From a virus (lineage: Duplodnaviria > Caudoviricetes), in IMG/VR virus record IMGVR_UViG_3300033061_002769, positions 1,780 through 65,779 of that record: a stretch of DNA of 64,000 bases. The stretch is one strand, 5' to 3'. Each line of letters begins with the position of its first letter. Positions within the stretch are counted from its first letter, which is position 1. A program made the translations under genes and the position numbers. The notes below the pieces were generated by a model that was given only the letters and a program-made list of their open reading frames with translations, made no database searches and had not been told where the DNA came from. Of this stretch, positions 6,170 through 60,159 are shown piece after piece.

Positions 6170-7417
6170 TCAGAGGAACTCTTGACCGGCTTTCGCATCA
6201 TCGTGAAACATCTTCACCGTTTCCAGCGAGTATTCGGTCAGGTCCTTGCCGATGAGATCCAGCTTTTTCAATACATCGCTGGTCACGGTGATGATGTGAC
6301 ACCCAACACTCTCCGCGTGAAAGATGTTTAGCAATTCGCGCGGGCTGGCCCAGATCAACTCGCAGCCTGGAACCCCATTCACCATCTCGACCGCTTCCGC
6401 CATCAGAGGCACCGGATCGCGGCCGGTGTCGGCAATCCTGCCCGCGAAAACCGACACGTAGGACGGAACGCCCCCGGTGAGCGCCGCACAGACGTCCCGC
6501 ACCTGCTCCACTGTCAGGATTGCCGTGACGTTCAACTTCACTCCCTGCCGCGAAAGTTTCCGCGCCAAATCGCATGAACTCTCCCGCCGGGTGTTGGTCA
6601 CAGGTATCTTGACGTAAACGTTCGGTCCCCAGGCGGCGATCTCTTTCGCCTGCCGTTCCATTTCCGGGAAGTCATCGGCAAACACCTCAAAGGAAATGGG
6701 CCGGTCCGGTATCGCCCGCAAAATGTCTTTGGCGAAGCTCACGTAGTCCCGAACGCCGGCCTTCCGCATCAGAGTCGGATTGGTGGTGAATCCCCTGACG
6801 AGCGGATTACGGTACAGGTCCAGCATCGCCGCCTTGTCGGCGCCGTCAGCGAAAATTTTGATCTTGAGTTCAGTTACAGAAGGCACTTGACCAAGAATCC
6901 AATCTGCTGCTTCTTGAAGCGATGTGACTCTTATGTCTCCTGGGGGAGATGACTTTTGTTCATCATACCCATAATCAATGAAGACAGTACGGCACCCTGC
7001 ATGCCGCCCCGCTTCAATGTCACGCCACCGATCCCCGATCATGAAACTGTTCGCAAGATCAATGTCATGCCAACGGGCCGCGGCTAACAAGAGCCCGAAA
7101 AGTGGTTTGCGGCAATCGCAAAAATCCGAGTCATCATGACAACAGACTAATATATCGTCCAACAGCAGCACCCTCTTGAGCCGCTCGTGCATTGCGTCTA
7201 CGACTGAGCGGCTTTGTGTACCTCGCGCGACGTCCGGTTGATTGGTAACTACTACCAGCAGGTATCCTCTCCGCTTCAGCCGTTCCAGAACGCCAGCCGC
7301 CTCCGGAAAGATTTCCATCTCTTTGACCGAAGCTGGCGGATAGGGTTTGCCGCCGCGCACTACGACGCGGACCAGCACGCCGTCGCGGTCCAGGAAGACG
7401 GCTCGCTGTTTCACCAT
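6170..7417 (-). CDS. gmhB: Fusion of D,D-heptose-1,7-bisphosphate phosphatase (GmhB, HAD) and transaldolase
   Basis: N-terminal FLDRDG, VVTNQP, CDCRKP and MIGDRWRDIEAG; C-terminal GFTTNPTL, ISFEV, VYVKIP, NVTA, SVFAGRI and WASPRE; no stop at the linker ADWILGQVPSVTELK. Confidence 0.9.
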   Translation of the reverse strand: MVKQRAVFLDRDGVLVRVVVRGGKPYPPASVKEMEIFPEAAGVLERLKRRGYLLVVVTNQPDVARGTQSRSVVDAMHERLKRVLLLDDILVCCHDDSDFCDCRKPLFGLLLAAARWHDIDLANSFMIGDRWRDIEAGRHAGCRTVFIDYGYDEQKSSPPGDIRVTSLQEAADWILGQVPSVTELKIKIFADGADKAAMLDLYRNPLVRGFTTNPTLMRKAGVRDYVSFAKDILRAIPDRPISFEVFADDFPEMERQAKEIAAWGPNVYVKIPVTNTRRESSCDLARKLSRQGVKLNVTAILTVEQVRDVCAALTGGVPSYVSVFAGRIADTGRDPVPLMAEAVEMVNGVPGCELIWASPRELLNIFHAESVGCHIITVTSDVLKKLDLIGKDLTEYSLETVKMFHDDAKAGQEFL

Positions 7418-8007
7418 GCTGATTCCCATTTAGTCTCTGCCTGCTTGAGCTCAGGGTGAGAGACAAGCAAGTGCCAAACCACGGCCTGAAACGCCTCGGT
7501 GTGGGGCGTGACGCGTTGCGGATTCACCGTGGGAACAATGACGCAGGCACCGGCGACTTTCGCGGTGTAGCCGCCGTCTCTGCCGACGATGCCACCGATA
7601 CGCGCACCGACTCCCTTGGCGTAGTCGAGGGCATTCACAATATTGGTGCTGACGTTATGTTCACGGTTGCCGCCGCCCACCGAGAACACCAGAATCATGT
7701 CCTGGCGGCGAAGCCTGCTGGTCTTGAGCCAGGATTCGAAGATCCCGCCCCAACCCTCGTCGTTGGTTCTGGCCGTCAGCTCGGCGACGTTGTCCGTAGG
7801 CGTGTAAGCTTCCATGCCTGTAATCTTTCTGAAATCGTTGACCGCGTGTGAGGCGTTGGCCGCGCTGCCTCCCACCCCCAGCAGAAAGAGTCGTCCACCT
7901 TCCTCTCTGGTTTCCGCGAGCAGCTTGGTCAATTTCTCGATCTTGGCGGTGTCCAACCGCTCCAGCACCTGTTTTGCCTCGCTCAGAAACTGTTCGCTGA
8001 AGTTCAT
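7411..8007 (-). CDS. gmhA: Sedoheptulose-7-phosphate isomerase (SIS domain)
   Basis: GVGGSAANASHAVNDF, LTARTND, SVGGGN and PHTEAFQ; sits within the heptose cluster. Confidence 0.85.
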   Translation of the reverse strand: MNFSEQFLSEAKQVLERLDTAKIEKLTKLLAETREEGGRLFLLGVGGSAANASHAVNDFRKITGMEAYTPTDNVAELTARTNDEGWGGIFESWLKTSRLRRQDMILVFSVGGGNREHNVSTNIVNALDYAKGVGARIGGIVGRDGGYTAKVAGACVIVPTVNPQRVTPHTEAFQAVVWHLLVSHPELKQAETKWESAW

Positions 8008-8708
8008 TTCGCTCCCTGGCTTGAAAGATAGCGGCCCAGTTCTTCAATCCCGGCAAACGATCCGATTTCGTAAAACCGCTCCGGCACTTCGAACGAAGCC
8101 AGTTGGCCCTCTGCCAGAAGCGCCTGGTATAGGCCGGCCAGATCGCAGGCCTGACCCGTGGGTATCCTGTCGAACGCGGACGAACGGAAGTATCCAAGGC
8201 CGTAGTCTATATGAAGCATTTTGGACGTGCGGTTCTTCTTATCGTAGGCTACGATATTGCCATCCGCAAATTCCACATTGCTCGCGTCAAATTGGCCGAG
8301 ATTCCGGTAAACGGTCATCAGGCCCCGCTTTCCGCTCTCGACAAAGGCCCGCTCCACGGACGTGTAGTCGCACGGAAGATAGGAATCTCCGTAAATGACG
8401 CCGAAAGCATCTCCCAGCAGCGGCAACGCATTTCGAATTGCTCCGGCGGTGCCCAGCAGTACGGGACCGTCGAACGCGTACTCGATCTTCAGCCCGAACC
8501 TCTGTCCATCACCGAGAAAATCCGCGATCATTTTACCCCGATATCCCACGAGAAAAACCACGCGCCGAACGCCCGAGGCGGCAAGAAGCCTCATCTGGTG
8601 CACGGCGAACGGCTCTCCGTTGACCTCGACGAGAGCCTTGGGAATCTTCTCGGTTAGGGGCCGGAGCCTCATCGCCACGCCCCCGGCAAGCACCGCAATC
8701 GGCAACAT
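8004..8708 (-). CDS. hddC: Heptose-1-phosphate nucleotidyltransferase (HddC-like)
   Basis: LAGGVAMRLRPLTEKIPKALV, LGTAGA, YGDSY and IDYG; adjacent to hddA and gmhA. Confidence 0.8.
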   Translation of the reverse strand: MLPIAVLAGGVAMRLRPLTEKIPKALVEVNGEPFAVHQMRLLAASGVRRVVFLVGYRGKMIADFLGDGQRFGLKIEYAFDGPVLLGTAGAIRNALPLLGDAFGVIYGDSYLPCDYTSVERAFVESGKRGLMTVYRNLGQFDASNVEFADGNIVAYDKKNRTSKMLHIDYGLGYFRSSAFDRIPTGQACDLAGLYQALLAEGQLASFEVPERFYEIGSFAGIEELGRYLSSQGAK

Positions 8709-8715
8709 AAATCCG

Positions 8716-9699
8716 TCAGGAATGTGTGAGCACTGTTGTGCCCGAAAAATCAAATCGGAAGCGCACTTCTCTCAGGCCGGCCTTGCTCATTGCGTGACGC
8801 AGGCGTGTCTTGTCTTCCGCGTAGAACATCAGGAAGCCGCCGCCACCGGCCCCGATTAATTTGCCTCCCAGCGCACCGTTGTTACGTCCGGCCTCGTACC
8901 ACTCGTCGATCTGGGGATTGCTCATCCCCGCGGTCCTTTTCTTCTTGTGCTCCCAATGCACGTGCATGAGGTCGGCGAACTTGCGCAAATCGCCGCGCTC
9001 AAAAGCAGTCTTGCTCTCCTCGCCAAGCCGCTTGGTGAAATGCAGATTCTCCAGCATCTCCACGTCCTTCTGCCTGCTGCGGTCGTCCTGATCGCGAAGG
9101 ATCCCGGTGGCGCTCCGCGTGAAACCCGTGAAGAACAGTGTCAGGTTGTCTTCGAGGTTATACCGCGTTTCGGAGTCCATCTGCAATGGCTCAACAGTCA
9201 CACGGTCGTCCGGGTGGAAGGTAAAACAGGTAATGCCGCCGAACGCGGCAATGTACTGATCCTGTTTCCCGATCTTTTCTCCTACCAGGTCCAGTTCCAC
9301 GTGGCAGGCTTCCTCCGCCAGTTGCTGCACCGGCGTAATCTCCCTCCTGAGGACGTGCAATGCCCGCAGGAGGGCAGTAGTGAAGCTACCCGACGATCCC
9401 AGCCCAGTCCCTGCTGGGATGTCCGACAGGCTGGTGATCTCGATGTGGGGATCGTTGATTCCCGCAAGTTTCAGCGCTTCGCGGACGATCGGATGGCGGA
9501 TCTCATCCACGCTTTGCACCATCTCCATCTGCGAGTACTTGACGATAATCTCCCGTACGAAAGTCTCATGCAGCGTGATGTAGACGTACTTGTCAATGGC
9601 GGCAGAGACCACAAATCCGCCGAATTCGTGGAAGTAACTGGGAAGATCGGTTCCTCCTCCGCCCAGCGAAATGCGCATAGGGCTGCGAGTGATGATCAT
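8716..9699 (-). CDS. hddA: D-glycero-alpha-D-manno-heptose-7-phosphate kinase (GHMP family)
   Basis: RISLGGGGTD, PAGTGLGSSG, GKQDQY and GGKLIGAGGGGF. Confidence 0.9.
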   Translation of the reverse strand: MIITRSPMRISLGGGGTDLPSYFHEFGGFVVSAAIDKYVYITLHETFVREIIVKYSQMEMVQSVDEIRHPIVREALKLAGINDPHIEITSLSDIPAGTGLGSSGSFTTALLRALHVLRREITPVQQLAEEACHVELDLVGEKIGKQDQYIAAFGGITCFTFHPDDRVTVEPLQMDSETRYNLEDNLTLFFTGFTRSATGILRDQDDRSRQKDVEMLENLHFTKRLGEESKTAFERGDLRKFADLMHVHWEHKKKRTAGMSNPQIDEWYEAGRNNGALGGKLIGAGGGGFLMFYAEDKTRLRHAMSKAGLREVRFRFDFSGTTVLTHS

Positions 9700-10670: not shown

Positions 10671-11617
10671 TAGTAGCTCCCCAAACGGCACCCTGTAAGA
10701 TATTCAATTGTCTTCACAACGCTTTGCCGGATGGTCAATCGAGGCATCCAACCAAGACTACGTATTTTGGTAGAATCCAAAAAGATGAAAGGACTATCTC
10801 CCGCCCAACCACGCTCGCCTTCGGAGTAGGTACGTTTAGGATGAAGACCCAAAAGCTCGGTAATCCAATCGATTGACCTGTCCACCGTACAGTACTCGTC
10901 TGTTCCCAGATTGAAGATGCTGACTCTGTCTTTCATCTTTCCCAAAGCAAGCACCATAGCATCTACACAATCCTGAACATACAGATAGGACTTGCGCTGT
11001 TTCCCATTTCCGAGCACGTCCAGTCTATCGGGATGTACCTGAAGCTGCTGGTAGAAATCGATCACATGACCATGCGTATAACGCTCGCCAAGAATCGATA
11101 CAAGTCGAAAAATACTGGACTGAAAACTAAAACTTTCACAGTAAGCGGCAATCAGACCCTCGGCTGCAAGCTTGGAAGCACCATAAAAAGAAGTCTGGAT
11201 CGGAAACGGGGCTCCTTCCGGAGTGGGAAATACATCAGGCTCCCCATACACTGAACTCGTTGAGGTAAACACAATTTTCTGGACGACGTTCTTGTGCATG
11301 GCCTCCAACACATTGAAGGTCCCTATCGTATTTTGTTCAAGATCCTTGCGAGAATGACGAGTTCCAAATCGGACATCAGCATTTGCGGCCAGATGAAAAA
11401 CCAACTCGACCCCCCGCATCGCATAAATAAGAAGATTGATATTGAACAGGTCGCCAGTTACTAATCGGAAAGAAGAGACTTTCAACGCCTGTTCAAGAAA
11501 TTCAAGACGACCCGTGGAGAAGTTATCAAACCCTACAACATTGTGACCTTCCGCCAGTAGCCGATCAACAAGGGCACTTCCAATAAATCCCGCAGCACCT
11601 GTAACGAAAACTTTCAT
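10670..11617 (-). CDS. NAD-dependent nucleotide-sugar epimerase/dehydratase (extended SDR)
   Basis: TGAAGFIGS, HLAA, TSSVYG and YGASK (YxxxK). Confidence 0.9.
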   Translation of the reverse strand: MKVFVTGAAGFIGSALVDRLLAEGHNVVGFDNFSTGRLEFLEQALKVSSFRLVTGDLFNINLLIYAMRGVELVFHLAANADVRFGTRHSRKDLEQNTIGTFNVLEAMHKNVVQKIVFTSTSSVYGEPDVFPTPEGAPFPIQTSFYGASKLAAEGLIAAYCESFSFQSSIFRLVSILGERYTHGHVIDFYQQLQVHPDRLDVLGNGKQRKSYLYVQDCVDAMVLALGKMKDRVSIFNLGTDEYCTVDRSIDWITELLGLHPKRTYSEGERGWAGDSPFIFLDSTKIRSLGWMPRLTIRQSVVKTIEYLTGCRLGSY

Positions 11618-12321
11618 CCGTAGTAAGCCTCAGCGTCTTCTTTACCTACCCAAATCTTTAAGACCGATAGATCGGGATCTTGCTTCCAATCACTTTCCCC
11701 CTCCGGACGGTGCCCAACACCTATTCCTGGACGACCTGGTAAACCCTTGATCCCTACACAATGTCCCGGTTCCTTGCTAAGTCCTGCAACCGACATTCCC
11801 TCCCACAACTGAACATCGATGAAAGTAGCTGACGGACGCTGACAGATCTTCTGAAGCCGATGTAACAGACAAAAACGAATTCCTGTCTGACACAAACTGG
11901 CATGATGCGCGTTTGGCAGTAAACGATACTGTCGGAAAGGAATGTGGTAATACCGCGCCGGAGTCTCTCCTACGATTTCATGTTTTTCCAGCATCTTGCA
12001 CATAAACTCCAAATACTCAGGAGAGTACCAATCGTCGTCTTCAATAAACAAAATACGATTATATTGTATCTCTGGAAGAGCTGCAAGAATATTCCGCGCC
12101 AGAGTGTTCTGCCCCGATTGCCATTTAGGTTTTGGATAGAGAATCGTAGCAAGCGTGTCCAATTGGAAATCCGTTTGGATAGTGGAAGGATCGCCATCGT
12201 CTACAATAATCCATTGAATAGGTGTATGGTAAGTTTGTCGAAGAACATACTTTTTGCACAAGACGAACGCTGCCGGTCGTCCTCCCGTAGGAGTTATTAA
12301 AGTCACTCCACCACTTTCCAT
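11614..12321 (-). CDS. GT-A fold glycosyltransferase
   Basis: LITPT, WIIVDDG and FIEDDDWY (DxD-type motif). Confidence 0.7.
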   Translation of the reverse strand: MESGGVTLITPTGGRPAAFVLCKKYVLRQTYHTPIQWIIVDDGDPSTIQTDFQLDTLATILYPKPKWQSGQNTLARNILAALPEIQYNRILFIEDDDWYSPEYLEFMCKMLEKHEIVGETPARYYHIPFRQYRLLPNAHHASLCQTGIRFCLLHRLQKICQRPSATFIDVQLWEGMSVAGLSKEPGHCVGIKGLPGRPGIGVGHRPEGESDWKQDPDLSVLKIWVGKEDAEAYYG

Positions 12322-13016
12322 TTTTCCTGAAGCCTCTGGTACATTTCCTGGGCGCTTGTTTCTTGATCCACCATTGTCCGCGAGTATGATACCGTAGCGT
12401 CCATCCTTCCGAATCCGTGTCGCATAACCACCTCTGAAGTCACTGCCAAACGAAAACCCGCCTCTTGAACCCGTCGGCAGTAGTCATTGTCCTCGCATCC
12501 GTATCCGTCAAAACGCGCATCCAAAAGGCCGACGCGATCAATTACTAAACGCTTCAAATAAACGCCTGTGAAGTAGAGAGGTTGTTTACTGTAGACCAAC
12601 CCGTCTTTGCCATACCGTGTGCTTTGCAAGAGATTGCCAACATTGCCCAAAAACTGGGGAGAGAGCAATCCGATCTCTGGCGAACCATGCGCATTGCGTG
12701 ATAAATCTACAAGACAATTCTCGCGAGTCCATTGTATATCGTCATTGACCAGAAACACGTCATCCTTGCCCGCAACTTGGATACCCAGATTTGCGTTTCG
12801 CGCAAAGACGAAGGGTTCAGGGCCTTCGAGGTAGTGCCATTTATTCGTATCAGACCAGAGACGGCGGCAACAGGGACAGACATTTTCACTCAATTGAACT
12901 CCGCGTGACTTGACTACAATCACACGGGCATCAGGTTCATAGCAAAGAAGCGAAAGCCGGAACTGCCGGAAGATGTCCTCAAACCCAGTCAGTACGACCA
13001 CAGTGACGTTAGACAC
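12303..13016 (-). CDS. GT2 glycosyltransferase
   Basis: FARNANLG, LVNDD and GLLDARFDGYGCEDNDYC. Confidence 0.8.
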   Translation of the reverse strand: MSNVTVVVLTGFEDIFRQFRLSLLCYEPDARVIVVKSRGVQLSENVCPCCRRLWSDTNKWHYLEGPEPFVFARNANLGIQVAGKDDVFLVNDDIQWTRENCLVDLSRNAHGSPEIGLLSPQFLGNVGNLLQSTRYGKDGLVYSKQPLYFTGVYLKRLVIDRVGLLDARFDGYGCEDNDYCRRVQEAGFRLAVTSEVVMRHGFGRMDATVSYSRTMVDQETSAQEMYQRLQEKWKVVE

Positions 13017-13788: not shown

Positions 13789-14365
13789 ACAATCCCGTAA
13801 ACGTGTATTTTCGGTACTCCGGACGCCATTGTGTAATGCCAGTCAACAGATGAAACGCAACCAGCATCCGGTCTACTGTCTCTCGGGTCCACAAGGCATA
13901 ATGTGCTTCTTGCAGTTCCGGATCATAGTTCACAGAAAAGTACAGATGTCCACCGGGTTTCAACACTCGTCGGATCTCTGACACCATCCGTTCTGGATTC
14001 GGGGTGTGGTCAATGACGTTGATACACCAAACGTAGTCAAATGAATTTGCGGGGGAACTCAATTCCTCTCCATCTTCCGCTCGGTAGTTAACCCACGGAG
14101 ATCGATAAGAAAAGATCTTGTCATACTCAAACAGTAGTGGGTCTACGGCTACGATAGGAGTCCCTTTGAATCCTAACGTGCTTACTAATCCACACCCAAG
14201 GTCCAGACCCAAACCGACCTCTTTCTCAATCTCACTCCACAAAAGTCCAGCATCAGCCCGATAGTCATTCCAGCGACGGTGCAAATATTTCTCCGCGTTG
14301 CCACCTTCTTCATCTACAAAGCAACGCCGCCAGAATCCCACCTCGACTTGTTGCTGAGAAGTCAC
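13775..14365 (-). CDS. Class I SAM-dependent methyltransferase
   Basis: LDLGCG, SFDYVWCINVIDH and EIRRVLKPGG. Confidence 0.9.
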   Translation of the reverse strand: MTSQQQVEVGFWRRCFVDEEGGNAEKYLHRRWNDYRADAGLLWSEIEKEVGLGLDLGCGLVSTLGFKGTPIVAVDPLLFEYDKIFSYRSPWVNYRAEDGEELSSPANSFDYVWCINVIDHTPNPERMVSEIRRVLKPGGHLYFSVNYDPELQEAHYALWTRETVDRMLVAFHLLTGITQWRPEYRKYTFTGLYEQS

Positions 14366-17124: not shown

Positions 17125-17130
17125 GCTAGA

Positions 17131-20957: not shown

Positions 20958-20961
20958 TCGG

Positions 20962-28923: not shown

Positions 28924-28926
28924 ACA

Positions 28927-51388: not shown

Positions 51389-54300
51389 TTATACGGAGAG
51401 TTTCCGCTACAACCTCTACCGTCTCTGATAAATCTCCGTTGATGAAATGAACTCCTGAGCACGCAAATGCACCCTGATAGATCGGTAAATTCCGCATCAG
51501 CACCGGCATTCCCCAGGCCAATGCTTCTCGGGGAACGAGTGGTGACAACTCCGAGGTGGAGGTAAACAGCAGCACATCCATCGCTGCGTAGAAGCGGTCC
51601 ACATCATTACGTTCACCCCAGATGTTACAGTTGACAGGACGGATCTTCATCAACGGTTCCCAGTAATCTGAAAAATTTAGCGCCTGATTCCCAACAAAAT
51701 GGAACTCAACAGCCGGCAACTCCCGCGCGATCTCAAAAGCTTCACGCTGATTCTTGCCTGGTGTAAAGAGCCCAACGTTAAGTACATGTTTCAGATCTGG
51801 ATCTAGACCCAGCGAGGTCAGAGCTATCGTCCTATCGGGCCGTACCTTCGGAGAGACTGAATATTCAGCAATCGAACACGGTATGAGCGGGTGGGCTTCT
51901 CGGCACAGATCAGCGTGATGTTGACAAACAACGACAAACGCATCGGGTATCCATCGCTTTGCTCTTGGATCGAAGCTACTGTCGTGGGATGTCTCGACAA
52001 GGCGGTAGCGCCTGTCGTTACGGTAAAGCACTTCACAAGCAGGGTTCGGAAGGAAGTACTCAGCGTGCTCTTGTAGGTGCACGATGTCTGGATTGAACTC
52101 AGTTAGCATCTCGGACAGCGCCGCCACACGATTCATGTGTCCATGGAATGGATGAAGGATGCCCATATCCTCGATTTGCTTCCTCTGCACCACGAAGTCC
52201 GACCCGTAGTAGTTCCATTCAACCACACACACTTCGGCCCCGACCGCGCGCAGGTCCCGAACACAGTTGAGCGCATACTGCGGAAGTCCGCCGGTGGAGA
52301 GATGCGGAACGATCTCCAGCACCCGCCAAGGATGAATGCCTAGAACTTCCGGGAACTGGGTCACCCTCTGAGGCATTGCTTCCGGGAACTGGGTTGCGCT
52401 CCGGGGCATTGGCAGAGCCGAGTTGATCGCGTCCTTCACCATCTCGACTGTAATTGCCTTGGTGCATTCGAAGTTCTTCTCACGTGGACACCATTCGGGG
52501 TCGGCTCGGTTGAGTAGATAAGTCGTGTCGTTGAAGCACCCGTGACATACGGACTCATTGATGACTCGGTAGCAGTCCTGCATCTCCACGTAGCGTGGGG
52601 TCATTCCGGATATGAGCACGACAGGGACGCCAAGAGCCCAAGCAACCCAGGCGAGGCCCGAGGATACACCGATGAACAGATCCGCGTGCTGAATGTTTCG
52701 GATTGTCTCCTCAATAGGCCGATCGTTCCAGCGCAATACACCGCCAAGGTGAGTAGGTTCCTTGCTCACGGAGGCTACAGAATAGCCCATGGTAGATAGG
52801 TAATCGGCAATAGCCTGCCACTTGTCTTGTGTCCACTGCTTCCCCACGTACCCGCGCGAGTAAGCGCGCTCGGCCTGGCCAATGACTTGAAATGCCGAGA
52901 ACTCAGAGAACGCGACATACTTCTCTTTGGGGGCAGGCAAATCAGAGGTGTAAATCTTCGGCCGAATCTCCCGGTAGTCCAATCCCAATATATCCGAAGC
53001 CACCTTTTGTAGCGGTATAGTACGCCAAGGAATGCGGTTGCGGTGGCCTCCGTCCCCATCCCAAGCCCCAATGAGGTAAGTCGCACAGTAGCTTTCACGC
53101 TGGGCTTCACCTGGGTTGTAGAATGTGATTTCCGGGTAGGCAGACTCAAACAAATCCTTCCAGAATGTCTCAACCTCGACTTGGCAACCACATTGCTGGC
53201 GCAGTTCATCGGCATAGGGCATCCAGGCCACTGTGTCTCCCAATGCGGAACTAGTGAGCACCACGAGCACACGCTTGCCCCGCAAGTCCATCTCGTGACG
53301 CAACACCTCGACTCCGTTCTCCGTCACTGTGACTCGCCAAGGGATGCGATACCTCGGGTTCGCGGCGGCATAATAGCCCGGTCCGATGGTCGTCGTATAG
53401 ACATTCTCACCAGTCGCCATGTTGTCAAATCGGACAGTGCACTCAGTCTTAGAATCCTCACTGACGCGGACAAATGCTCCATCATTGAACAGTAGGCGAA
53501 CCTGGCTACCACCCGGAGTAACGACCGCCCGAGGAGGCCCATCCGACTGCTCTCCCGAGAGCGCAGCAATGACTTCGGGAGGGCCAGCGGCAAACATACC
53601 GATCCGAACAGCAGGGTTACCCAAAGACATCACGTCAAAGAATGGAAACTTCGTGCGGAGTAACTTCCTGAACGCCGCATATCCACCATCGAGGTGATAC
53701 TCGCCTACAATGAAGCCAATTCTGTTGGCAGCGACGAAAGAACTCATCTGCTTGACAATCTCCACTTCGCTGCCCTCGCAGTCAAGCTTCAACAGATCGA
53801 TATAGACAGCTTCCTCAGCCACGTTTTCCATCGTTACCGACGGCACACCGGTCTCGCTTATCTCTCGCTCGCCGGCCGCTCCACCAGGAAGGGCATACAC
53901 ACCCTCCTTGGTGGTCAGAATCCCGCCCCCAGTCGGATAACCTCTGTGTTCCGCAAGCACAGTCTTCTCGGGTTCGTAAGAGACCGCCTGCCGCCGGACC
54001 TGAACACTCGTTCTGCCGTTCGCCCTCATGTTCCGCTCATACAGAGAGGCAGATTGCCGGTTGGGTTCATAGACAATTAAGTGACTCTCAGGCCACAACG
54101 ATTTCGCCAGCAACCCGAACGTCCCGATGTTTCCACCCACATCCACAATGGTCTCCGGCTTCGGGATCAGTTTGGACAATTCCCTCAAGCAGTAGCAGTC
54201 GTTGATGATCACCTCATCCACAACGTAGCGGTCGCGCTCATGCGGCAACTGAATCACCATCCCATCCGCTTCAGTAACACAGGACCGAAGATGCTTGTAC

Positions 54301-56276
54301 CTCTCATGGATCATGTCAGTAAGCGCCTGTTGGCAATCAGCCAGTTGGTGCACAACTGAGGCGGAATGAAAGCGGTAGTGAAAAAGGGGTTTCTGTACCA
54401 CAGCTACCTGCCATCCTGCCAGCATGATTTTGATCCAGAGATCCCAATCCTCGTGCCGCTCCTGCTCGTCAAACCCACCGGCCTCTGACCACGCCTGTTT
54501 GCGGAACATAGAGGCGCAGAAAACCGGGTTGGACTGGAACATGTCGATAAGCGTAATCCTGTCCGGTGGGTTCCAGCTATTCTCCTGCTCACCGAAACAC
54601 TGAATGCCAGTGGAGACCAACCCGACACATTCAGTTATCTTCGCCCGGCATTCCTCGATGTACGTGGACGCAATCCAGTCATCCGAGTCAAGGCAGATAA
54701 TATACTCTCCAGACGCGGCCTCGATCCCTCTATTCTTAGCAGCCCCTTGGGTGCCCGTAGCCTGCAATACCTTTACCTGAGGGTAGCGAGCAGCGACTTC
54801 CAAACTGTCATCAGTCGAGCCGTCATCCACCACGATGATCTCCTGCGGCAGCACGGTCTGCTTCAAACAAGACTCAATTGTCTCTGCTAGGTAGCGACCA
54901 TAGTTCAAATTCGGGATCACTACGGTAACCGCCGCCCCCTCCCTGGCGTTCGCCTTGAACACGTAGGGAATATTCACGTGTGTCGAGTCCACATTGGAGA
55001 AGTCCATCGCCTCCACGTGTATCTTCTCACCATACAGGAATCGCCCATTGAGTTCTTCCGCACTACCGCCCATTGACTTCTGCGGCCATGCCGTCTGCAC
55101 CACGTTATGTGGAATGCCAACTAGGCTATTCCACTGATCGTAAACGACTTCCAACTGCCTACCCCTGCGCTGCATGGCAGCCTCCAATCGGTTCGGACAG
55201 TCAAAGTCAAGATCCGCTATCAGCGGCAGAATTTCATCAGTGCGTAATACATGACCATCAAGCGAGTAGGAGTAACGGAAATTCTCGCTACCCGGAGATT
55301 GAGGAGCATCCGTATGCCAATCACGCACAACATTCAACCCTAAACGATAAGAGAAGCACTGCCCTAAGTTCAGACGTGGAACCACGGGAGCCGACCGATA
55401 GAATACATCATCATCTACAAAAAAGACGGTCTGCTCGCATGGTTCAATGAGCTTCAGCAAGCTCCCCTTGAAATCGTCCCCCTGCAAGACAAACTGAACA
55501 CCCTTATGACCTTGCATCAAGACCTGATAACCTTTGCTGTAGTTAGCCCCCGTAGCAAGATACAAAACTTTCACTGGAAACAGGTCAGGAGCGAATCGTT
55601 CCATGCTGTTCAACAGCGCATCCAACTGCATCGCGCGATTCTTGGAGAAGATAATAACGTTCGGCTTCAATGCTTTCCTCCGCAACAATATATCGTCGTA
55701 GTCCTCTTCGACCACTTCAAAATCAGGGAGCATGGCCAGGAACTCGTCACGCAATGCCTGACCCTCATACATCTCGATCTTGTAGGACTCAACAAAGATC
55801 CAGTCGGTCTGGCCGAGAATTTTCCGGCCGCCCCTAACCATGTCCTTCTCAGCACCTTGGATGTCCGCCCAGAGCAGATCGATGTGGGAGATTTCGTGCA
55901 TCCATGCTAGATCATCCAACGTCAAGCAAGACACAATCACTGAACGGTCAAAAGTGATCTCAGGATGAACCGTCGTGTGCAGTTTCGGCTTGCGAATGGA
56001 ACTGGAGCGGGCTGTCTCGATGGCACTTTCATCCCCGGACAGGTAGAAGTCGATATCGCCACCGTGGGAAGCGACAGCCACGGAGAGTGGGTAGATGCCA
56101 GGAACCTCCCGCAAGATTGGAAAATGCCTCGGGTCAGGCTCAACAGCGATATAGACTGGGAAGCCATTGCAAGCTGCCCGCAGCCAACGTGTATCTGCAC
56201 CTTGGTGTGCCCCCAGTTCCACAACCACCGGGCTGTTCAGTCTGGCCAGGATCTGCTGAATGCGGGATTTGATCAT
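51357..56276 (-). CDS. 1639-aa glycosylation mega-enzyme: FkbM MTase + GT-A-like + GT2 + FkbM MTase + Aah/TibC-type heptosyltransferase + GT4-like
   Basis: VELGAHQG/DIQGAE; IIFSKNR..DDDVFY; VVIPNLNYG..LDSDD; VDVGGNIG/KLDCEGSE; ALGDTVAW.PY, FIGVSSGLAW and CHGC..WCP..FECT; PHLSTGG, NVGLFTPGKNQ and ELSPLVPREAL. Confidence 0.88.
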   Translation of the reverse strand: MIKSRIQQILARLNSPVVVELGAHQGADTRWLRAACNGFPVYIAVEPDPRHFPILREVPGIYPLSVAVASHGGDIDFYLSGDESAIETARSSSIRKPKLHTTVHPEITFDRSVIVSCLTLDDLAWMHEISHIDLLWADIQGAEKDMVRGGRKILGQTDWIFVESYKIEMYEGQALRDEFLAMLPDFEVVEEDYDDILLRRKALKPNVIIFSKNRAMQLDALLNSMERFAPDLFPVKVLYLATGANYSKGYQVLMQGHKGVQFVLQGDDFKGSLLKLIEPCEQTVFFVDDDVFYRSAPVVPRLNLGQCFSYRLGLNVVRDWHTDAPQSPGSENFRYSYSLDGHVLRTDEILPLIADLDFDCPNRLEAAMQRRGRQLEVVYDQWNSLVGIPHNVVQTAWPQKSMGGSAEELNGRFLYGEKIHVEAMDFSNVDSTHVNIPYVFKANAREGAAVTVVIPNLNYGRYLAETIESCLKQTVLPQEIIVVDDGSTDDSLEVAARYPQVKVLQATGTQGAAKNRGIEAASGEYIICLDSDDWIASTYIEECRAKITECVGLVSTGIQCFGEQENSWNPPDRITLIDMFQSNPVFCASMFRKQAWSEAGGFDEQERHEDWDLWIKIMLAGWQVAVVQKPLFHYRFHSASVVHQLADCQQALTDMIHERYKHLRSCVTEADGMVIQLPHERDRYVVDEVIINDCYCLRELSKLIPKPETIVDVGGNIGTFGLLAKSLWPESHLIVYEPNRQSASLYERNMRANGRTSVQVRRQAVSYEPEKTVLAEHRGYPTGGGILTTKEGVYALPGGAAGEREISETGVPSVTMENVAEEAVYIDLLKLDCEGSEVEIVKQMSSFVAANRIGFIVGEYHLDGGYAAFRKLLRTKFPFFDVMSLGNPAVRIGMFAAGPPEVIAALSGEQSDGPPRAVVTPGGSQVRLLFNDGAFVRVSEDSKTECTVRFDNMATGENVYTTTIGPGYYAAANPRYRIPWRVTVTENGVEVLRHEMDLRGKRVLVVLTSSALGDTVAWMPYADELRQQCGCQVEVETFWKDLFESAYPEITFYNPGEAQRESYCATYLIGAWDGDGGHRNRIPWRTIPLQKVASDILGLDYREIRPKIYTSDLPAPKEKYVAFSEFSAFQVIGQAERAYSRGYVGKQWTQDKWQAIADYLSTMGYSVASVSKEPTHLGGVLRWNDRPIEETIRNIQHADLFIGVSSGLAWVAWALGVPVVLISGMTPRYVEMQDCYRVINESVCHGCFNDTTYLLNRADPEWCPREKNFECTKAITVEMVKDAINSALPMPRSATQFPEAMPQRVTQFPEVLGIHPWRVLEIVPHLSTGGLPQYALNCVRDLRAVGAEVCVVEWNYYGSDFVVQRKQIEDMGILHPFHGHMNRVAALSEMLTEFNPDIVHLQEHAEYFLPNPACEVLYRNDRRYRLVETSHDSSFDPRAKRWIPDAFVVVCQHHADLCREAHPLIPCSIAEYSVSPKVRPDRTIALTSLGLDPDLKHVLNVGLFTPGKNQREAFEIARELPAVEFHFVGNQALNFSDYWEPLMKIRPVNCNIWGERNDVDRFYAAMDVLLFTSTSELSPLVPREALAWGMPVLMRNLPIYQGAFACSGVHFINGDLSETVEVVAETLRISEERDALVST

Positions 56277-56333
56277 ATGAAGATGATACCGGAACTGCGG
56301 GCTAAGTCAAGAGTTTTTTCAGGCGTTGTAGAT

Positions 56334-57167
56334 TCAAGCCAACCCGTCCACAGTTTTGACGGCAGCGACGGCCAAGCCGTAAAAAGTTTTCACGCTTGCT
56401 TTTACAAGATCATTGATGGTTTTGAGGTTGCCGCCCGCCGCCGGGATGAAGTAGCGGCGGTATTGGGGGACGAGGATGTTTGAGTATGGATCATTGTACA
56501 GACTGAGAATTTCTTTAGAACTTAACACCCGGTTATAGACGCTGACATCTCGGATCTGTCCGGCCCAATATGCCGCAACGGCTGCACTCCATCGACCCAT
56601 GTTAAATGACATTACATCGTTAGAGGTGTTCGTTGGATTCGCCGCGAACATGATGCCGTTCACACTCATGTACCCTTCCGCAGCGGACACGCGGCTCAAC
56701 GAGATGTGAGTCCAATTGGTGGTAGTTGGGACACCAGAATCTATGTAGATGTTTGCCTGATATACCTGGACTGTTCCGTCCCTGTTGGGAACGATCGCTC
56801 CATCGGGAATACCGCTACTATCGCCTAATCCTAATGCTCCACCGACACTTGAGCCCGTCGAGGCTGGCTTACAGTCCACAACTAGTGTCCATCCATCCCG
56901 AGGCAACGGCAGCGTTCCGATCACCACGCAATCGTCGCTCCCATCAAAGTCAAGACAAAACCCTCGACTGGACCCGACCCAGTCGGTTGCTGGGTCCATG
57001 CCAGTTAAAGTGCCAACATCACCTCGGACTACATTCAGCAAAGAACTACCTGCGCCCTCATTGATCAGCCATCTACCAACCAACCCTCTCGACATCGGAT
57101 GCCCCAGGTCGATCATCGAACCTGGGGGAGGTTTGGTGTAGCCACGGCCTGCGCGGGAATAACTCAT
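56334..57167 (-). CDS. LamG/concanavalin A-like virion lectin-fold protein
   Basis: GLVGRWLINEGAG, LDFDGSDD, WTHI and GQIRDVSVYNRVLS. Confidence 0.8.
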   Translation of the reverse strand: MSYSRAGRGYTKPPPGSMIDLGHPMSRGLVGRWLINEGAGSSLLNVVRGDVGTLTGMDPATDWVGSSRGFCLDFDGSDDCVVIGTLPLPRDGWTLVVDCKPASTGSSVGGALGLGDSSGIPDGAIVPNRDGTVQVYQANIYIDSGVPTTTNWTHISLSRVSAAEGYMSVNGIMFAANPTNTSNDVMSFNMGRWSAAVAAYWAGQIRDVSVYNRVLSSKEILSLYNDPYSNILVPQYRRYFIPAAGGNLKTINDLVKASVKTFYGLAVAAVKTVDGLA

Positions 57168-57781
57168 CCGATGGAGTCTCCAGTATTCAGGTGAACCTTA
57201 ATATGAACGTCGGCTCCAGCCGCTCCTTCGTGGCGGAAGATGACAGCGATACGTTTGATACCAACGCTGAAATCTATGGCACAGATGAACCGCTCGGCGT
57301 CGTTCCAGATCACATCGGAACTGTCTTTTTGATTTGTCAGCCCGCGAGCCAGCCAAACAGCTATTGGTGGACCTGTCGGAACTATCTTGTCACAGTCGGC
57401 CCATTCGGAGTCGGCCAGAGTCCCGGTATCTTGGATGTAGAGAATATCTCCAGCGACGAACCCGGTCGTGGATGCGACAACCAATTCTGTTTCCCCAGCA
57501 GGTTCCGTAGCCGTCATCGCTTCGGTGTCGGCAGTAGAAACCTGTGCTGTGAATCGGGCATACTCAACCCAATCTTCATCACCCGCTTCCGCTGCGGAGT
57601 ACTGGACGATAAACGACCCTGGATTAGTATTAGCCGCGGCCTCGACCGAGGCGTGGAACATGGACAGTATCCCAGCCAGCTTCGTAGCGACGTTGATCGC
57701 CGCGCTGAAGACGCTGTTTGGATGGGTCACGGCCTGATGAGCGATGACTACCGTTCCCGCGGTTTGTAAAAGTGATGCCAT
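57164..57781 (-). CDS. Hypothetical beta-rich virion-like protein
   Basis: 205-aa ORF, coupled to its neighbours. Confidence 0.6.
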   Translation of the reverse strand: MASLLQTAGTVVIAHQAVTHPNSVFSAAINVATKLAGILSMFHASVEAAANTNPGSFIVQYSAAEAGDEDWVEYARFTAQVSTADTEAMTATEPAGETELVVASTTGFVAGDILYIQDTGTLADSEWADCDKIVPTGPPIAVWLARGLTNQKDSSDVIWNDAERFICAIDFSVGIKRIAVIFRHEGAAGADVHIKVHLNTGDSIG

Positions 57782-57782
57782 G

Positions 57783-58142
57783 TTACACTCCTATCGTCAA
57801 CCCGTACCACTTGTAGATGCAGGCTATTTCGGCCTTGCACTCGTTGATGAGAATGTCGGCCATTCCTTCCACTACCGCCGCTGAACCACCGCCACTCGAC
57901 ATGGCGCGGATGCTGGTGTGCAACTCGACAATATCACCCGCAACGATGGTTGCTTTCTCGGCTGCCGTGATCTGGCCCGGCCCCGTACCCTCAACCATCG
58001 ACGTGCTTCCCATCCGTCCACAGGTGAGCATGACCGACTTCCAGGTCTTGGCCGCGCTATTCGATCCGCTTGGGCACGGGAAGTGCAGGATCACCCTATA
58101 GTCATCTGAGCCCTGCTGCTCCATGATGTGAATTTTTGCCAT
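57783..58142 (-). CDS. Hypothetical protein
   Basis: 119-aa ORF with strong RBS. Confidence 0.6.
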   Translation of the reverse strand: MAKIHIMEQQGSDDYRVILHFPCPSGSNSAAKTWKSVMLTCGRMGSTSMVEGTGPGQITAAEKATIVAGDIVELHTSIRAMSSGGGSAAVVEGMADILINECKAEIACIYKWYGLTIGV

Positions 58143-58203
58143 TTGTCTCTCCTATTTCTCCGGCATCGGCCGGTTTAGCCAATTTCCATTAACGTCAGTG
58201 GAC

Positions 58204-60159
58204 TCACGTATGGGTAATCCAAGAATTGTCGGGGCTGAAAAACAGTGCGTCAGCCGTAAGCGCCTGACCGATAATACGAATGACAACATCGGTCGTAGTC
58301 GGCTGTATGCTCGTAACGTTACCGGCTGTTTCTGAAACGTATACAGGGGCACCTATTGTCATCGTCGGGAATCGAGCATCCGCCCGCACCTCGCCCCACA
58401 GTAGCATCTTAGTGGCTGATCCGTCTCCCGCCGCCGCCAACACACAGATACCAAGCAGATTGCGAGAGTCACCAGCACCTGCCGCCGCCGCATTGGCATC
58501 TGTCAATTCCCATCGGGAGTCGGCGGTTTGCAAATAACACAGATCGCCAAACACCAATGTAGCTCCGGCTGTTCCTGAGATCACAATCCCGGAGTATTTC
58601 CCGTCGGCTGATAGAGATGAATCCAGCGCTAGGCCCGTGTTCTCGCCGAGATCGAGTTCGGCAGCGAGAGGATTGGCGGAGGACGTTCCACTAGTACCCC
58701 CAGTCCCTCCAGTACCTGCTGTCCCAGAGGTCCCGCTCGTTGAACTAATTCCTGAAGTACCGCTTGTTCCAGTAGTACCCGAACTGCCCGATACGCCCGT
58801 AGTTCCACTTGAGGCACCCGTTGTACCTGATGTCCCCGAAGTTCCAGATACCCCCGATGTGCCACTTGTTCTTGACGCGCCCCCAGTGCCTGACGTACCG
58901 CTACTCGCGCCTGTTGTACCCGAAGTCCCCGCTGTCCCCGAAGTTCCAGATACCCCTGTTGTGCCGCTCGAAGAGGCACTAGTGCCGGATGTACCGGCAG
59001 TACCTGAGGTGCCCGTTGTCCCACTTGAAGATGCCGAGGTCCCGCTGGTCCCCGCCGTCCCACTCGTCCCCGATATACCCGTGGTACCGCTACTCGCTCC
59101 AGTCGTGCCAGAAGTGCCAGCGGTTCCTGAAGTCCCTGAAACACCAGACGTACCACTAGATGCTCCCGTAGTCCCCGAGGTTCCTGCCGTCCCCGAAGTC
59201 CCCGTAGTTCCGCTCGACGCTCCAGTTGTCCCTGATGTTCCCGAAGTACCTGACACACCTGTTGTGCCACTGGAGGCTGCCGATGTGCCCGAGGTACCCG
59301 CAGTTCCGCTGGTCCCACTTGTGCCTGAACTTCCACTTGACCCGGCAATCGAAATACCGGACGTTCCCGACGTGCCCGTAGTACCGCTGGAAGCCCCAGT
59401 AGTGCCAGAAGTTCCGGCAGTCCCGGAGGTTCCTGTTGTCCCACTGGAAGCTCCGGTTGTTCCCGACGTGCCTGCCGTTCCCGACGAACCAGGCACACCG
59501 GGTGCTCCAGAAGCACCACTCACCCCCGAAGTTCCACCTGTCCCGCTTGTCCCCGAGCTTCCACTAGAGCCGGAGATAGATGTACCTGATGTACCCGAGG
59601 TTCCTGTCGTACCGCTGGAAGCCCCCGTAGTTCCGGAAGTGCCGGCCGTGCCTGAGGTACCACTGCTGCCCGACACACCTGATGTACCACTAGAAGAAGC
59701 TGAGGTGCCTGAGGTTCCGCTCGTTCCAGACGCGCCTCCGGTCCCGCTAGTTCCTGAACTTCCGCTGGAGCCGGCAATAGATGTTCCAGACGTTCCCGAT
59801 GTGCCAGTAGTACCACTGCTCGCTCCAGTTGTGCCCGAAGTGCCGGCTGTACCTGAAGTTCCCGATGCACCCGTGGTTCCGCTACTTGCACCTGTTGTAC
59901 CAGATGTCCCGCTAGTTCCCGATATACCAGATGTCCCACTTGAGGCACCAGTTGTGCCTGAGGTCCCGGCTGTGCCTGAGGTCCCAGCTGTTGAAGAAAT
60001 ACCTGAGGTCCCCGCAGTACCACTACTCCCAGGAATAGTAAGCCCACTGGTTCCAGATGAGCCGGAAACACCAGAACTTCCCGAAACGCCCTGCGGCCCA
60101 GCAACGCCTAGTTCAAGAATCACTACCGGCGACTCGTCTATTTCAATTGTCATTGGCAT
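58204..60159 (-). CDS. Collagen-like Gly-X-Y Ser/Thr-rich fibre with a globular C-terminal domain
   Basis: GPQG start, then ~470 aa of [16 protein letters not shown] units; C-terminal ~155-aa beta domain ([20 protein letters not shown]). Confidence 0.85.

Follow-up and report, generated by a model that had tools for sequence, protein, structure and literature searches.

Whether a phage can sugar-coat its own collagen-like fibre, and whether it brings along genes for one of the sugars, is the question raised by the locus analysed here. The window, i.e., the whole 64,000-nt stretch under analysis, spans bases 1780-65779 of one 65,779-bp virus record, a siphovirus-like contig of an uncultured, soil-type phage (CheckV completeness 52%) with Mu-like portal, MuF, terminase, major head, tape-measure and tail-tube genes, all on the - strand. 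An Illumina adapter stands at the contig start, a sign of an unpolished assembly. A sequence-only reading had placed a heptose block, a TibC/Aah-like domain and a Gly/Ser/Thr fibre within one - strand run and interpreted them as a self-contained glycosylation system for the virion. All three components are present in that run, and the interpretation as a whole is partly supported: judging from these genes, the phage probably sugar-coats its own collagen-like fibre, and its captured heptose operon is what sets it apart.

The proposed acceptor is a 651-aa collagen-like fibre (58204..60159, - strand; Pfam Collagen, E = 9e-35), composed of a short N-terminal segment, a tract of ~480 residues in Gly-Thr/x-Ser/x triplets and an all-beta C-terminal domain of ~155 aa, homologues of which adjoin TibC-like genes in four other loci (L003, L046, L061 and L081). 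Residues 18-497 consist of 31% Gly, 29% Ser, 26% Thr, 8% Ala and 1% Pro, so that Ser and Thr make up 55% of the tract; its 144 G-X-Y triplets carry Thr at X in 98 cases and Ser at Y in 98, with ~24 short interruptions. A tandem repeat was looked for at the DNA level in the fibre gene and none was found, and its Ser/Thr content is not approached by that of any other ORF in the window. Between the fibre and the 1639-aa enzyme described next lie three ORFs (56334..58142, - strand), not two as counted earlier; those of 119 aa and 205 aa are without any match, and the one of 277 aa is a ConA/Laminin_G_3-like virion protein (Pfam Laminin_G_3, E = 9e-10; phrog_8510, virion structural protein).

The 1639-aa protein (51357..56276, - strand; Pfam and NCBIfam matches) has six domains: an FkbM MTase (residues 21-183), an uncharacterised domain (~200-445), a GT2 (450-666), a second FkbM MTase (709-849), a TibC/Aah-like domain (919-1286) and a GT4 (1329-1633). 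The uncharacterised domain is a paralogue of ORF 15869-16720, since both match the same places in loci L005-L007. The TibC/Aah-like domain (52419..53522, - strand), the proposed initiating O-glycosyltransferase, had been recognised from the start and scores 236.7 bits against TIGR04414 (Aah/TibC), above the NCBIfam cut-off of 200, and E = 4e-42 against the TibC structure (PDB 4RAP). Asp-110, Lys-230, Trp-305 and the four iron-finger Cys are kept, the adenine-contacting Arg-286 of TibC is replaced by Thr, and the beta-hairpin "thumb" of TibC is deleted. Correspondingly, phage TibC-like enzymes as a group are devoid of the dodecamer thumb and often of the adenine-binding Arg. A change of Thr-226 to Ala together with a 14-residue insertion in the phosphate-binding loop is found in the window's domain alone; such changes might make the enzyme less active or alter how it uses its donor. 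The 1639-aa gene is followed directly downstream by a gene for a 225-aa sialyltransferase-like/Maf(DUF115)-like protein (50711..51388, - strand; phrog_4603, E = 9e-35; weak Pfam MptE-like match).

The proposed pairing of transferase and fibre is supported by its recurrence across phages and its specificity for Ser/Thr collagen. A Pro-free Ser/Thr collagen ORF lies within 10 kb of the TibC-like domain in 40/81 phage loci, a fraction that rises to 16/22 where both flanks are complete and is 1/17 for loci under 10 kb; six fibre genes are within 63 bp of the domain. In the closest relative (L002), whose major head protein is 72% identical to that of the window phage, the collagen gene ends ~28 bp before a TibC-GT4-MTase-GT2 gene. 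Conversely, IMG/VR records picked only by a Gly-Thr-Ser DNA pattern contain TIGR04414 in 14 of 48 cases (3/4 of those at least 90% complete), versus none of 46 viral control records with Pro-type collagen (0/11 complete ones; Fisher p = 4e-5). In both directions the counts are uncorrected for ancestry that contigs have in common. In a tree built with FastTree only, the phage enzymes group together as the sister of the autotransporter-linked ones (split support 100). Clade A (50 rows) holds Acetobacteraceae, Burkholderiaceae, E. coli and C. rodentium enzymes encoded beside autotransporters and has 0 collagen neighbours; clade B, to which the window's domain belongs, holds all viral contigs, diverse MAG contigs and all 45 collagen neighbours. 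The pairing ranges from the 66-kb siphovirus-like contig to the isolate Microcystis phage Mel-JY01 (190 kb, T4-like capsid) and phages of 285-735 kb, in loci that differ in domain architecture (shuffled), gene order and orientation. Given its recurrence in phages of widely different kinds, its restriction to Ser/Thr-type repeats and its absence from the autotransporter-linked clade, the predicted pairing of the TibC-like transferase with a Ser/Thr collagen fibre as enzyme and acceptor is well supported.

Additional enzymes that could act on such a glycan are encoded by 12 tightly packed ORFs (11614..20085, - strand; Pfam), proposed to elongate and O-methylate it. By start position these are GT2 (11614), an unannotated ORF (12303), GT2 (13009), MTase_11 (13775), GT1/GT4 (14362), GT2 (15216), two unannotated ORFs (15869 and 16717), MTase_24 (17131), an unannotated ORF (17700), MTase_24 (18482) and GT2 (19039). 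In L002 and L005-L007, TibC-like genes are fused to, or neighboured by, homologues of ORFs 15216-15872 and 15869-16720 and of the MTase_24 genes. The ~15 GT-like and ~6 MTase-like domains first counted come down to nine verified GT domains (eight by Pfam and the sialyltransferase-like one by PHROG), with one further weak match, and five MTase domains. Each GT is predicted to be a soluble protein: a crude hydropathy scan found no multi-pass membrane protein among the GT genes and no ORF of the 12-ORF cluster rich in transmembrane segments, in agreement with the earlier remark that flippase, GtrA and integral-membrane GTs are missing, which applies to this 52%-complete contig.

The heptose-nucleotide block (6170-11617) consists of six compacted, co-oriented genes, unlike most bacterial-type loci. 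Its core (6170..9699, - strand) comprises, in order of coordinates, one ORF (6170-7429) in which a HAD-IIIA/GmhB-like phosphatase (residues 1-170) is fused to a transaldolase (residues 186-414; TIGR02134, 343.9 bits vs a cut-off of 282), a SIS/GmhA-like isomerase (7411-8007; TIGR00441, 49 bits, below cut-off), a nucleotidyltransferase (8004-8753; best match MurU, 111 bits; HddC, 65 bits) and an HddA-like GHMP kinase (8716-9699; best family HddA, 158 bits, below the cut-off of 600). A GFO/IDH/MocA oxidoreductase (9696-10691) and an SDR epimerase/dehydratase (10670-11617), both - strand and assigned by Pfam and NCBIfam, are proposed sugar-nucleotide modifying enzymes. Of the full heptose pathway read earlier, the four enzyme classes and the transaldolase are present; the GmhA, HddA and HddC matches all fall below NCBIfam cut-offs. 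By its GHMP kinase and NTP_transferase, the cassette is of the predicted alpha type (HddA/HddC-like); the nucleotide of its product is uncertain because the nucleotidyltransferase scores higher against MurU than against HddC. The core shares 60-76% identity with Acidobacteriota MAG proteins and with operons of like gene order on metagenome contigs that are not from phages, and the oxidoreductase and SDR genes are 64-68% identical to, and syntenic with, bacterial-type loci. The cassette is of bacterial origin, its proposed source being the host lineage, probably Acidobacteriota.

That heptose would be the sugar set on the fibre by the TibC-like domain is a weaker link than the enzyme-fibre pairing. 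TibC uses ADP-beta-heptose (PMC4358343) and the pathway co-encoded here is alpha-type, so that anomer and nucleotide differ. The Thr at the position of Arg-286 and the insertion in the phosphate loop weigh in the same direction. Among TibC-bearing viral records, gmhA occurs in 2 of 49 sampled (1/7 of those at least 90% complete) and an HddA-type kinase in 0/50, and the complete Mel-JY01 genome has no heptose genes. One of the two gmhA carriers, a 285-kb TibC/collagen jumbo phage (G003), encodes an HldE-type ADP-heptose pathway, which differs from the window's cassette and is an independent instance of heptose genes alongside this pairing. The expected co-occurrence of the parts in related phages therefore holds for transferase and fibre, not for the heptose genes; "self-contained" fits this phage and is no description of the module in general, because 47/49 other TibC-bearing viral records are without gmhA.

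We lean, by a little, towards cytoplasmic O-glycosylation of the fibre by the TibC-like domain, elaboration of the glycan and a captured heptose supply as the full explanation. The acceptor would be the ~480-residue Gly-Thr-Ser tract of gp58204-60159, modified in the host cytoplasm, and the initiating enzyme the TibC-like domain of the 1639-aa protein, whose clade keeps the BAHT catalytic Asp, Lys and Trp and the iron finger but has lost the ring-forming thumb; Ser/Thr collagen repeats would have taken the place of beta-helical autotransporters as its substrate. Extension and O-methylation of the glycan would fall to the fused GT4, GT2 and FkbM domains, together with the sialyltransferase-like neighbour and the 12-ORF cluster. 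The transaldolase would make sedoheptulose-7-P, from which the captured operon would produce an NDP-D-glycero-alpha-D-manno-heptose that the oxidoreductase and the SDR enzyme may go on to modify; if so, the phage is self-sufficient for one or more sugars of its glycan. Heptose would enter the glycan through whichever GT can use it, and the glycan may stabilise or shield the Pro-free triple helix.

There is a lesser but real possibility that the TibC-like enzyme glycosylates the fibre while the heptose operon and the 12-ORF cluster serve another target, such as host envelope polysaccharide or LPS (e.g., to block superinfection), other virion proteins or a soluble product, the three parts then not being one system. 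A distance of 31-45 kb separates cassette and GT cluster from the genes for the fibre and the TibC-like enzyme, the syntenic bacterial operons presumably feed cell-surface glycans, and the rarity of heptose genes beside TibC and the unlike donor (PMC4358343) point the same way. However, neither a flippase or polymerase nor a GtrA-like or multi-pass membrane GT is found on the contig, although, at ~52% completeness, membrane components may be encoded in the missing part. In addition, other phages have TibC-like proteins fused to homologues of GT-cluster genes, translational coupling links the cassette to the GT cluster, and all parts share one - strand run with the virion genes.

It is improbable that the collagen-TibC pairing merely reflects an inherited common structural gene block, with the TibC-like domain modifying another virion protein, a host protein or a glycolipid. 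The contigs are not phylogenetically independent, 6/22 full-flank loci are without a collagen ORF within 10 kb, and a collagen triple helix is structurally unlike the beta-helix loops modified by TibC (PMC4358343); yet the pairing spans unrelated virion types, genome sizes and gene orders, excludes Pro-type collagen, and leaves the fibre as the only comparably Ser/Thr-rich ORF in the window. That the cassette is host DNA joined by misassembly, or a prophage flank, is very improbable, despite its bacterial-type identity and gene order, its GC of 0.57 against ~0.50, a nearest viral GHMP kinase only ~40% identical and the adapter at the contig start. It is internal, with an SNF2-helicase/DNA-methylase gene in lower-GC DNA on its left and the phage GT cluster on its right; its status as real phage DNA is supported by the exact ATGA stop/start overlap (11614-11617) that joins the SDR gene to the phage GT2 gene (11614-12321), by its position as a GC island with lower-GC phage DNA on either side and by the GmhB-transaldolase fusion, found only here (0/49 bacterial-type loci). 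Hypermodification of phage DNA by the GTs and sugar pathway, as in phages glycosylating hydroxymethyl-pyrimidines, deserves equally little credence: phage GTs are known, according to work cited in PMC12619734, to add diverse glycans to DNA, and the DNA-methylase/helicase gene is nearby, but a thymidylate-synthase/hydroxymethylase-like gene was looked for on the contig and none was found, the TibC family targets protein serines (PMC4358343), and the specific Ser/Thr collagen link would be left unexplained.

Read as the glycosylation of the phage's own fibre, the locus is comparable to the TibC-TibA and Aah-AIDA-I systems of E. coli (BAHT; TIGR04414; PDB 4RAP/4RB4; PMC4358343), to whose enzymes the phage domain is homologous over the whole enzyme, sharing the N-terminal beta-barrel, the GT-B catalytic core and the iron finger with the catalytic residues and four Cys listed above. 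In both cases a cytoplasmic enzyme hyper-glycosylates, on the phage side by prediction, Ser of a long repetitive protein encoded nearby. In contrast to TibC/Aah, the phage enzyme belongs to a separate clade, lacks the thumb needed for the dodecamer ring and the Arg-286 adenine contact of TibC, is embedded in a six-domain protein, faces a viral Gly-X-Y collagen-like fibre instead of a beta-helical autotransporter, and is accompanied by an alpha-type NDP-heptose pathway instead of using ADP-beta-heptose. The cassette itself shares with the GDP-D-glycero-alpha-D-manno-heptose pathway (GmhA, HddA, GmhB, HddC; NCBIfam NF049969/NF049965/NF050049) all four of its enzyme classes, grouped in a single operon (SIS isomerase, GHMP kinase with HddA as best family, HAD-IIIA phosphatase and NTP_transferase). 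It differs in that all four enzymes are under the curated cut-offs and the phosphatase is fused to a transaldolase; the oxidoreductase and SDR enzyme suggest a modified heptose.

Virus-encoded glycosylation of virions has also been described elsewhere. Mycobacteriophage GTs decorate the phages' own virion proteins, where capsid and tail-tube subunits carry the glycans at their C-termini, with a proposed role in particle shielding (Freeman et al., 2023, PMC10527164, as presented in PMC12619734); these GTs are unrelated and small, and a TibC-like domain, a collagen-like acceptor and a sugar-nucleotide operon are absent there. Likewise, virus-borne sugar-nucleotide synthesis and many GTs decorate the surface fibrils of giant viruses, which, unlike the phage, are eukaryotic viruses and use other sugars and enzymes (review PMC9614988). 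As to the acceptor, the collagen-like Gly-X-Thr repeats of the Bacillus anthracis exosporium glycoprotein BclA (PMC10050317) and of Riftia cuticle collagen are densely O-glycosylated, and in the latter glycosylated Thr replaces hydroxyproline as triple-helix stabiliser (Mann et al., 1996, as cited in PMC11766948). BclA repeats are Pro-rich (GPT), whereas the phage tract is of the Pro-free type. The systems are found in different organisms, with different sugars and, to present knowledge, different enzymes; no homology is implied. The Riftia case nevertheless provides a precedent for a Pro-free Gly-Thr-Ser helix that perhaps needs its sugars.

The apparent link between the TibC-like domain and a Ser/Thr collagen-like fibre is the strongest result of the analysis, and gene neighbourhoods point to it in both directions of search. 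In the window, the domain occupies residues 919-1286 of the six-domain, 1639-aa enzyme (51357-56276, minus strand), and the fibre is a 651-aa Gly-Thr-Ser protein (58204-60159, minus strand); both of them, like the heptose genes, lie where the sequence-only reading had placed them, with three ORFs between fibre and enzyme instead of the two that it had counted. At least 594 IMG/VR contigs encode a relative of the domain according to an alignment-based scan, and a search of viral contigs with one sequence of the domain as query gave no match. In a sample of 81 phage loci, composed of 80 IMG/VR loci and one of Microcystis phage Mel-JY01, a Pro-free Ser/Thr collagen-like ORF is located no more than 10 kb from the domain in 40 cases. 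This pairing is found in 16 of the 22 loci with both flanks complete and in 1 of the 17 loci shorter than 10 kb, so that contig truncation accounts for most of the missing fibres; in six loci fewer than 65 bp separate the fibre gene from the TibC-like domain. In the reverse direction, 48 viral records picked solely by Gly-Thr-Ser-encoding DNA were set against 46 controls picked by a Gly-Pro-x collagen pattern. The TIGR04414 domain is present in 14 of the former (13 above cut-off), including three of the four that are at least 90% complete, and in none of the controls (0/46; 0/11 complete; Fisher p = 4e-5).

The association also follows phylogeny. In a FastTree of 152 TibC-like domains, which splits into two clades with support of 100, clade A (50 rows) comprises Acetobacteraceae and Burkholderiaceae enzymes as well as those of E. 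coli and C. rodentium, whose genes have an autotransporter directly downstream, and contains no collagen neighbours. Every viral contig falls in clade B, together with metagenome-assembled genome (MAG) contigs from a broad spread of phyla, and so do all 45 loci with a collagen link. The pairing is carried by a 66-kb siphovirus-like contig, a T4-like isolate and phages of 285-735 kb, and the domain architectures vary among loci, a GT4 domain accompanying the TibC-like domain in 41/81. In the closest relative of the window (L002, head protein 72% identical) the collagen gene abuts a TibC-GT4-MTase-GT2 gene. Among the loci examined, the window has the largest glycosyltransferase/methyltransferase (GT/MTase) set accompanying the domain. 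Of its GT-like and MTase domains, 9 and 5 could be verified, against the roughly 15 and 6 claimed from sequence alone; no ORF of the GT cluster has a membrane-spanning profile, in support, for this contig, of the claimed absence of membrane GTs. Clade-B genes with Gly-Thr-Ser collagen neighbours were additionally seen on MAG contigs of very different phyla (L321-L347), some of them archaeal (Nitrosotalea, Thermoplasmatales); such contigs could be prophages or phage DNA that was binned into MAGs. A further observation concerns Mel-JY01 (PP395634.1), in which a 1016-codon open frame (L001:2-3049, plus strand) encodes a tract of Gly-Ser/Thr triplets some 600 residues long. The annotation of the record has a hypothetical CDS at 739-2298 on the minus strand and a short plus-strand CDS in its place, so that the fibre gene is probably mis-annotated.

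The fibre of the window matches the Pfam collagen family (PF01391, E = 9e-35), with Gly at every third residue in long runs. It contains 144 Gly-X-Y triplets, with Thr at X in 98 and Ser at Y in 98, and the tract is broken every 4-8 triplets by interruptions of 1-4 residues, about 24 in all. No tandem repeat was found in the fibre gene at the DNA level, which argues against an assembly artefact and for a repeat kept at the level of the protein. An AlphaFold model of the C-terminal domain from a five-sequence alignment had a mean pLDDT of 47, too low to be of use. Among the ORFs of the window, only the fibre and, weakly, a 1297-aa tail protein are Ser/Thr-rich.

The TibC-like domain itself exceeds the TIGR04414 cut-off (236.7 versus 200 bits) and aligns with TibC (PDB 4RAP) over residues 24-384 (E = 4e-42). 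With residue roles taken from the TibC structure paper (PMC4358343), Asp-110 (catalytic base), Lys-230 (beta-phosphate) and Trp-305 (heptose O4) are kept in the window, as they are almost throughout the 152 aligned sequences. The four iron-finger Cys residues (339, 342, 358 and 370) are all present in the window as well; clade-B rows have them in 101-102 of 104 cases and clade-A rows in 47-48 of 48. Other contacts have changed. Arg-286 of TibC touches adenine N1, which is the basis of ADP specificity and is said to exclude guanine (PMC4358343); this position is Arg in 48/48 clade-A rows, Thr in the window and variable in clade B (Thr 51, Arg 32, Ile 8, Val 6). Thr-226, a beta-phosphate contact in the S-T-x3-K loop of TibC (PMC4358343), is replaced by Ala in the window, where a 14-residue in-frame insertion (domain residues 213-226; window positions about 52830-52880) separates the S-T motif from Lys-230. 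Neither the substitution nor the insertion occurs in the other 151 aligned sequences, and the nearest relatives (L002, L003, L005 and L007) retain S-T and a short loop. The beta-hairpin thumb, which mediates the dodecameric ring of TibC (PMC4358343), spans 29-30 residues in clade-A enzymes; the window, like the median of clade B, has 19, a 10-residue deletion. The window contains no autotransporter gene, and its domain falls in clade B, outside of the clade of characterised enzymes (support 100, branch length 0.55). Taken together, the kept catalytic residues, the changed contacts and the separate clade argue for a domain predicted to work like the bacterial autotransporter heptosyltransferases (BAHTs) TibC and Aah, yet not belonging to their characterised clade. 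Without Arg-286 and with its phosphate loop remodelled, the domain could have a changed donor, though these features do not establish one. Residue 286 was also considered as a marker of the type of co-encoded heptose pathway and was rejected, since a 285-kb jumbo phage (G003) has Ser-286 yet an ADP pathway.

The heptose cassette (6170-11617, minus strand) encodes a GmhB-transaldolase fusion, GmhA, HddC-like and HddA-like enzymes, a GFO/IDH/MocA protein and an SDR. Its SIS_2, GHMP kinase, HAD-IIIA and NTP_transferase classes all occur, in consecutive overlapping ORFs (6170-9699), and 49-69 of 80 bacterial-type loci have the same gene order. All four enzymes fall below their equivalog cut-offs (HddA, 158 versus 600 bits; HddC, 65 versus 300; GmhA, 49 versus 209; GmhB, 105 versus 178), and the nucleotidyltransferase scores higher as MurU (111 bits) than as HddC. 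Thousands of proteins share 70-76% identity with the kinase, and JGI names its 70-75% identical homologues D-glycero-alpha-D-manno-heptose-7-phosphate kinase; its nearest viral match is only about 40% identical. The 80 metagenome loci retrieved with the kinase (51-76% identity) in many cases share the order (SDR)-GFO-kinase-nucleotidyltransferase-GmhA-GmhB-transaldolase, and none of them contains a match to any window phage gene. The sequence-only reading had allowed that the cassette could be host DNA joined by misassembly. Against this, it forms a 57% GC island with lower-GC DNA on both flanks, its first gene starts within an ATGA shared with the stop codon of a phage GT2 gene, and GmhB and transaldolase, which are separate in 49/49 bacterial-type loci, are fused in the window alone. 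On these sequence features, the cassette is read as a bacterial operon captured by the phage, and hence as true phage DNA. Several of the named nearest kinase matches belong to Acidobacteriota (Ca. Sulfotelmatomonas, Bryobacteraceae), and because relatives of the captured operon include this phylum, it is the likely host lineage. The GFO-HddA-HddC-GmhA-GmhB-transaldolase operon was also observed to be very common in Acidobacteriota-like contigs (L413-L492; at least 8000 candidates at E <= 1e-10), and in bacteria the linkage of transaldolase to a heptose-nucleotide pathway seems to be an ancestral trait.

On whether heptose is the sugar placed on the fibre, the arguments point both ways. In favour, the cassette is coupled to the GT cluster, homologues of which are fused to TibC-like proteins elsewhere. 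Additionally, G003, which also carries the TibC/collagen pair, independently encodes a different heptose route, with GmhB and an HldE-type kinase above cut-off: a 326-aa ORF (L403:9590-10570, minus strand) fuses the HldE domain-II adenylyltransferase to GmhA and adjoins a stand-alone HldE domain-I kinase and GmhB, making up a complete phage-encoded ADP-heptose pathway. Several observations weigh against heptose. The donor of TibC is ADP-beta-heptose, whereas the window cassette is of the alpha-anomer type, and its enzymes score below cut-off with a nucleotidyltransferase that leans towards MurU. The sequence-only reading had also looked to co-occurrence of all the parts in other phages, which is borne out for the transferase and the Ser/Thr collagen fibre and fails for the heptose genes: gmhA is present in 2/49 TibC-bearing viral records (1/7 near-complete) and absent from the complete Mel-JY01 genome, and an HddA-type kinase occurs in 0/50 TibC-bearing records. 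The gmhA gene is not significantly enriched with the domain (2/49 and 0/14 pattern-picked TibC-positive records versus 0/80 domain-free ones). On balance, heptose probably enters a glycan built by the GTs of this phage, and it is somewhat doubtful that the TibC-like domain itself transfers it.

The window covers bases 1780-65779 of one 65,779-bp virus record, about 52% complete (CheckV), and almost all of its genes lie on the minus strand. From 63 kb downwards they are small regulators, the fibre, three small ORFs, the 1639-aa enzyme and a sialyltransferase-like gene, followed by neck genes, tail tube, tape measure and two large tail proteins; then terminase, a GIY-YIG gene, a Mu-like portal (nearest match in a phage collection 44% identical), MuF, two polyvalent head proteins and the major head protein; and then an ADP-ribosyltransferase, a 12-ORF GT/MTase cluster and the six-gene sugar-nucleotide block ending at 6170, to the left of which lies, among other genes, a plus-strand SNF2-helicase/DNA-methylase fusion. 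The polyvalent head proteins (26806-31290, minus strand) combine a 2H phosphoesterase, an XkdF-type protease and a PI3/4-kinase-like domain in one and ChaB with a histidine phosphatase in the other. The major head protein gene is separated from a 496-aa ORF by a tRNA-Ile (anticodon TAT; 24927-25003, minus strand). The 262-aa ADP-ribosyltransferase (20205-20993, minus strand), of the exoenzyme family (PF03496, E = 2e-25), has the head genes on one side and the GT cluster on the other. The GIY-YIG ORF (33784-34650, minus strand; weak match, E = 2e-4) sits between portal and terminase genes, as expected of a homing endonuclease insertion. PDB sequence searches returned nothing significant for residues 200-445 of the 1639-aa enzyme or for the ORFs at 17700-18497 and 12303-13016, and the ORF at 15869-16720 belongs to virus-rich hypothetical families (Atlas) with a weak GT2 lead. 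A promoter and terminator scan of 5-23.5 kb performed no better than on shuffled sequence. Bases 1-32 of the contig, outside of the window and 1780 bases upstream of its start, are an Illumina TruSeq adapter (GACTGGAGTTCAGACGTGTGCTCTTCCGATCT), either left untrimmed at the assembly end or marking a physical end of the genome; a search for terminal repeats on the contig gave none.

A Pro-free Gly-X-Y tract is without the usual triple-helix stabilisers. Glycosylated Thr acts as a stabiliser in Riftia cuticle collagen (Mann et al. 1996, as relayed in PMC11766948), and O-linked glycans densely cover the collagen-like region of B. anthracis BclA (PMC10050317). A joint reading, which we regard as rather unlikely to hold in full, is that clade-B TibC-like proteins are widespread, undescribed viral collagen O-glycosyltransferases whose sugars would stand in for hydroxyproline and hold Pro-free Gly-Thr-Ser triple helices together on particles. 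The window phage would then be the furthest along: having captured the full heptose operon of a bacterium and joined transaldolase to GmhB, it would also have reshaped the TibC-like donor loop for an alpha-linked NDP-heptose, resulting in a methylated heptose coat on the fibre. Such a glycan could serve stabilisation, shielding or receptor binding, and mycobacteriophage glycans are reported to shield virions, as summarised in PMC12619734. More broadly, the at least 594 contigs and the tight, specific Ser/Thr collagen association point to what may be a common, undescribed fibre decoration of phages, with possible consequences for receptor binding, the stability of the particle and fibre folding without proline. 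In JGI pipelines such genes already carry the name 'autotransporter strand-loop-strand O-heptosyltransferase'. No paper that combines 'collagen-like', 'heptosyltransferase' and 'phage' turned up in a full-text search, and none in the literature searched links TibC-like enzymes to phage collagen-like proteins. Because the phage brings its own donor operon, the window is the most useful test case for sugar identity; what it adds, besides the large GT/MTase set, is a small, siphovirus-like carrier and a captured heptose operon that is complete, of the alpha type and marked by a fusion specific to the phage.

To our knowledge, protein heptosylation by TibC/Aah is known for autotransporter adhesins alone, and phage virion glycosylation is known experimentally from mycobacteriophages alone. 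In the latter, the acceptors are the C-termini of capsid or tail-tube subunits, whereas the major head and tail-tube ORFs of the window contain no Ser/Thr-rich tract. The fibre differs from usual collagen-like (PF01391) proteins, being atypical in its 1% Pro and frequent interruptions. Judged by homology, the system is predicted to be a BAHT-type protein O-glycosylation with a new class of acceptor in a viral setting.
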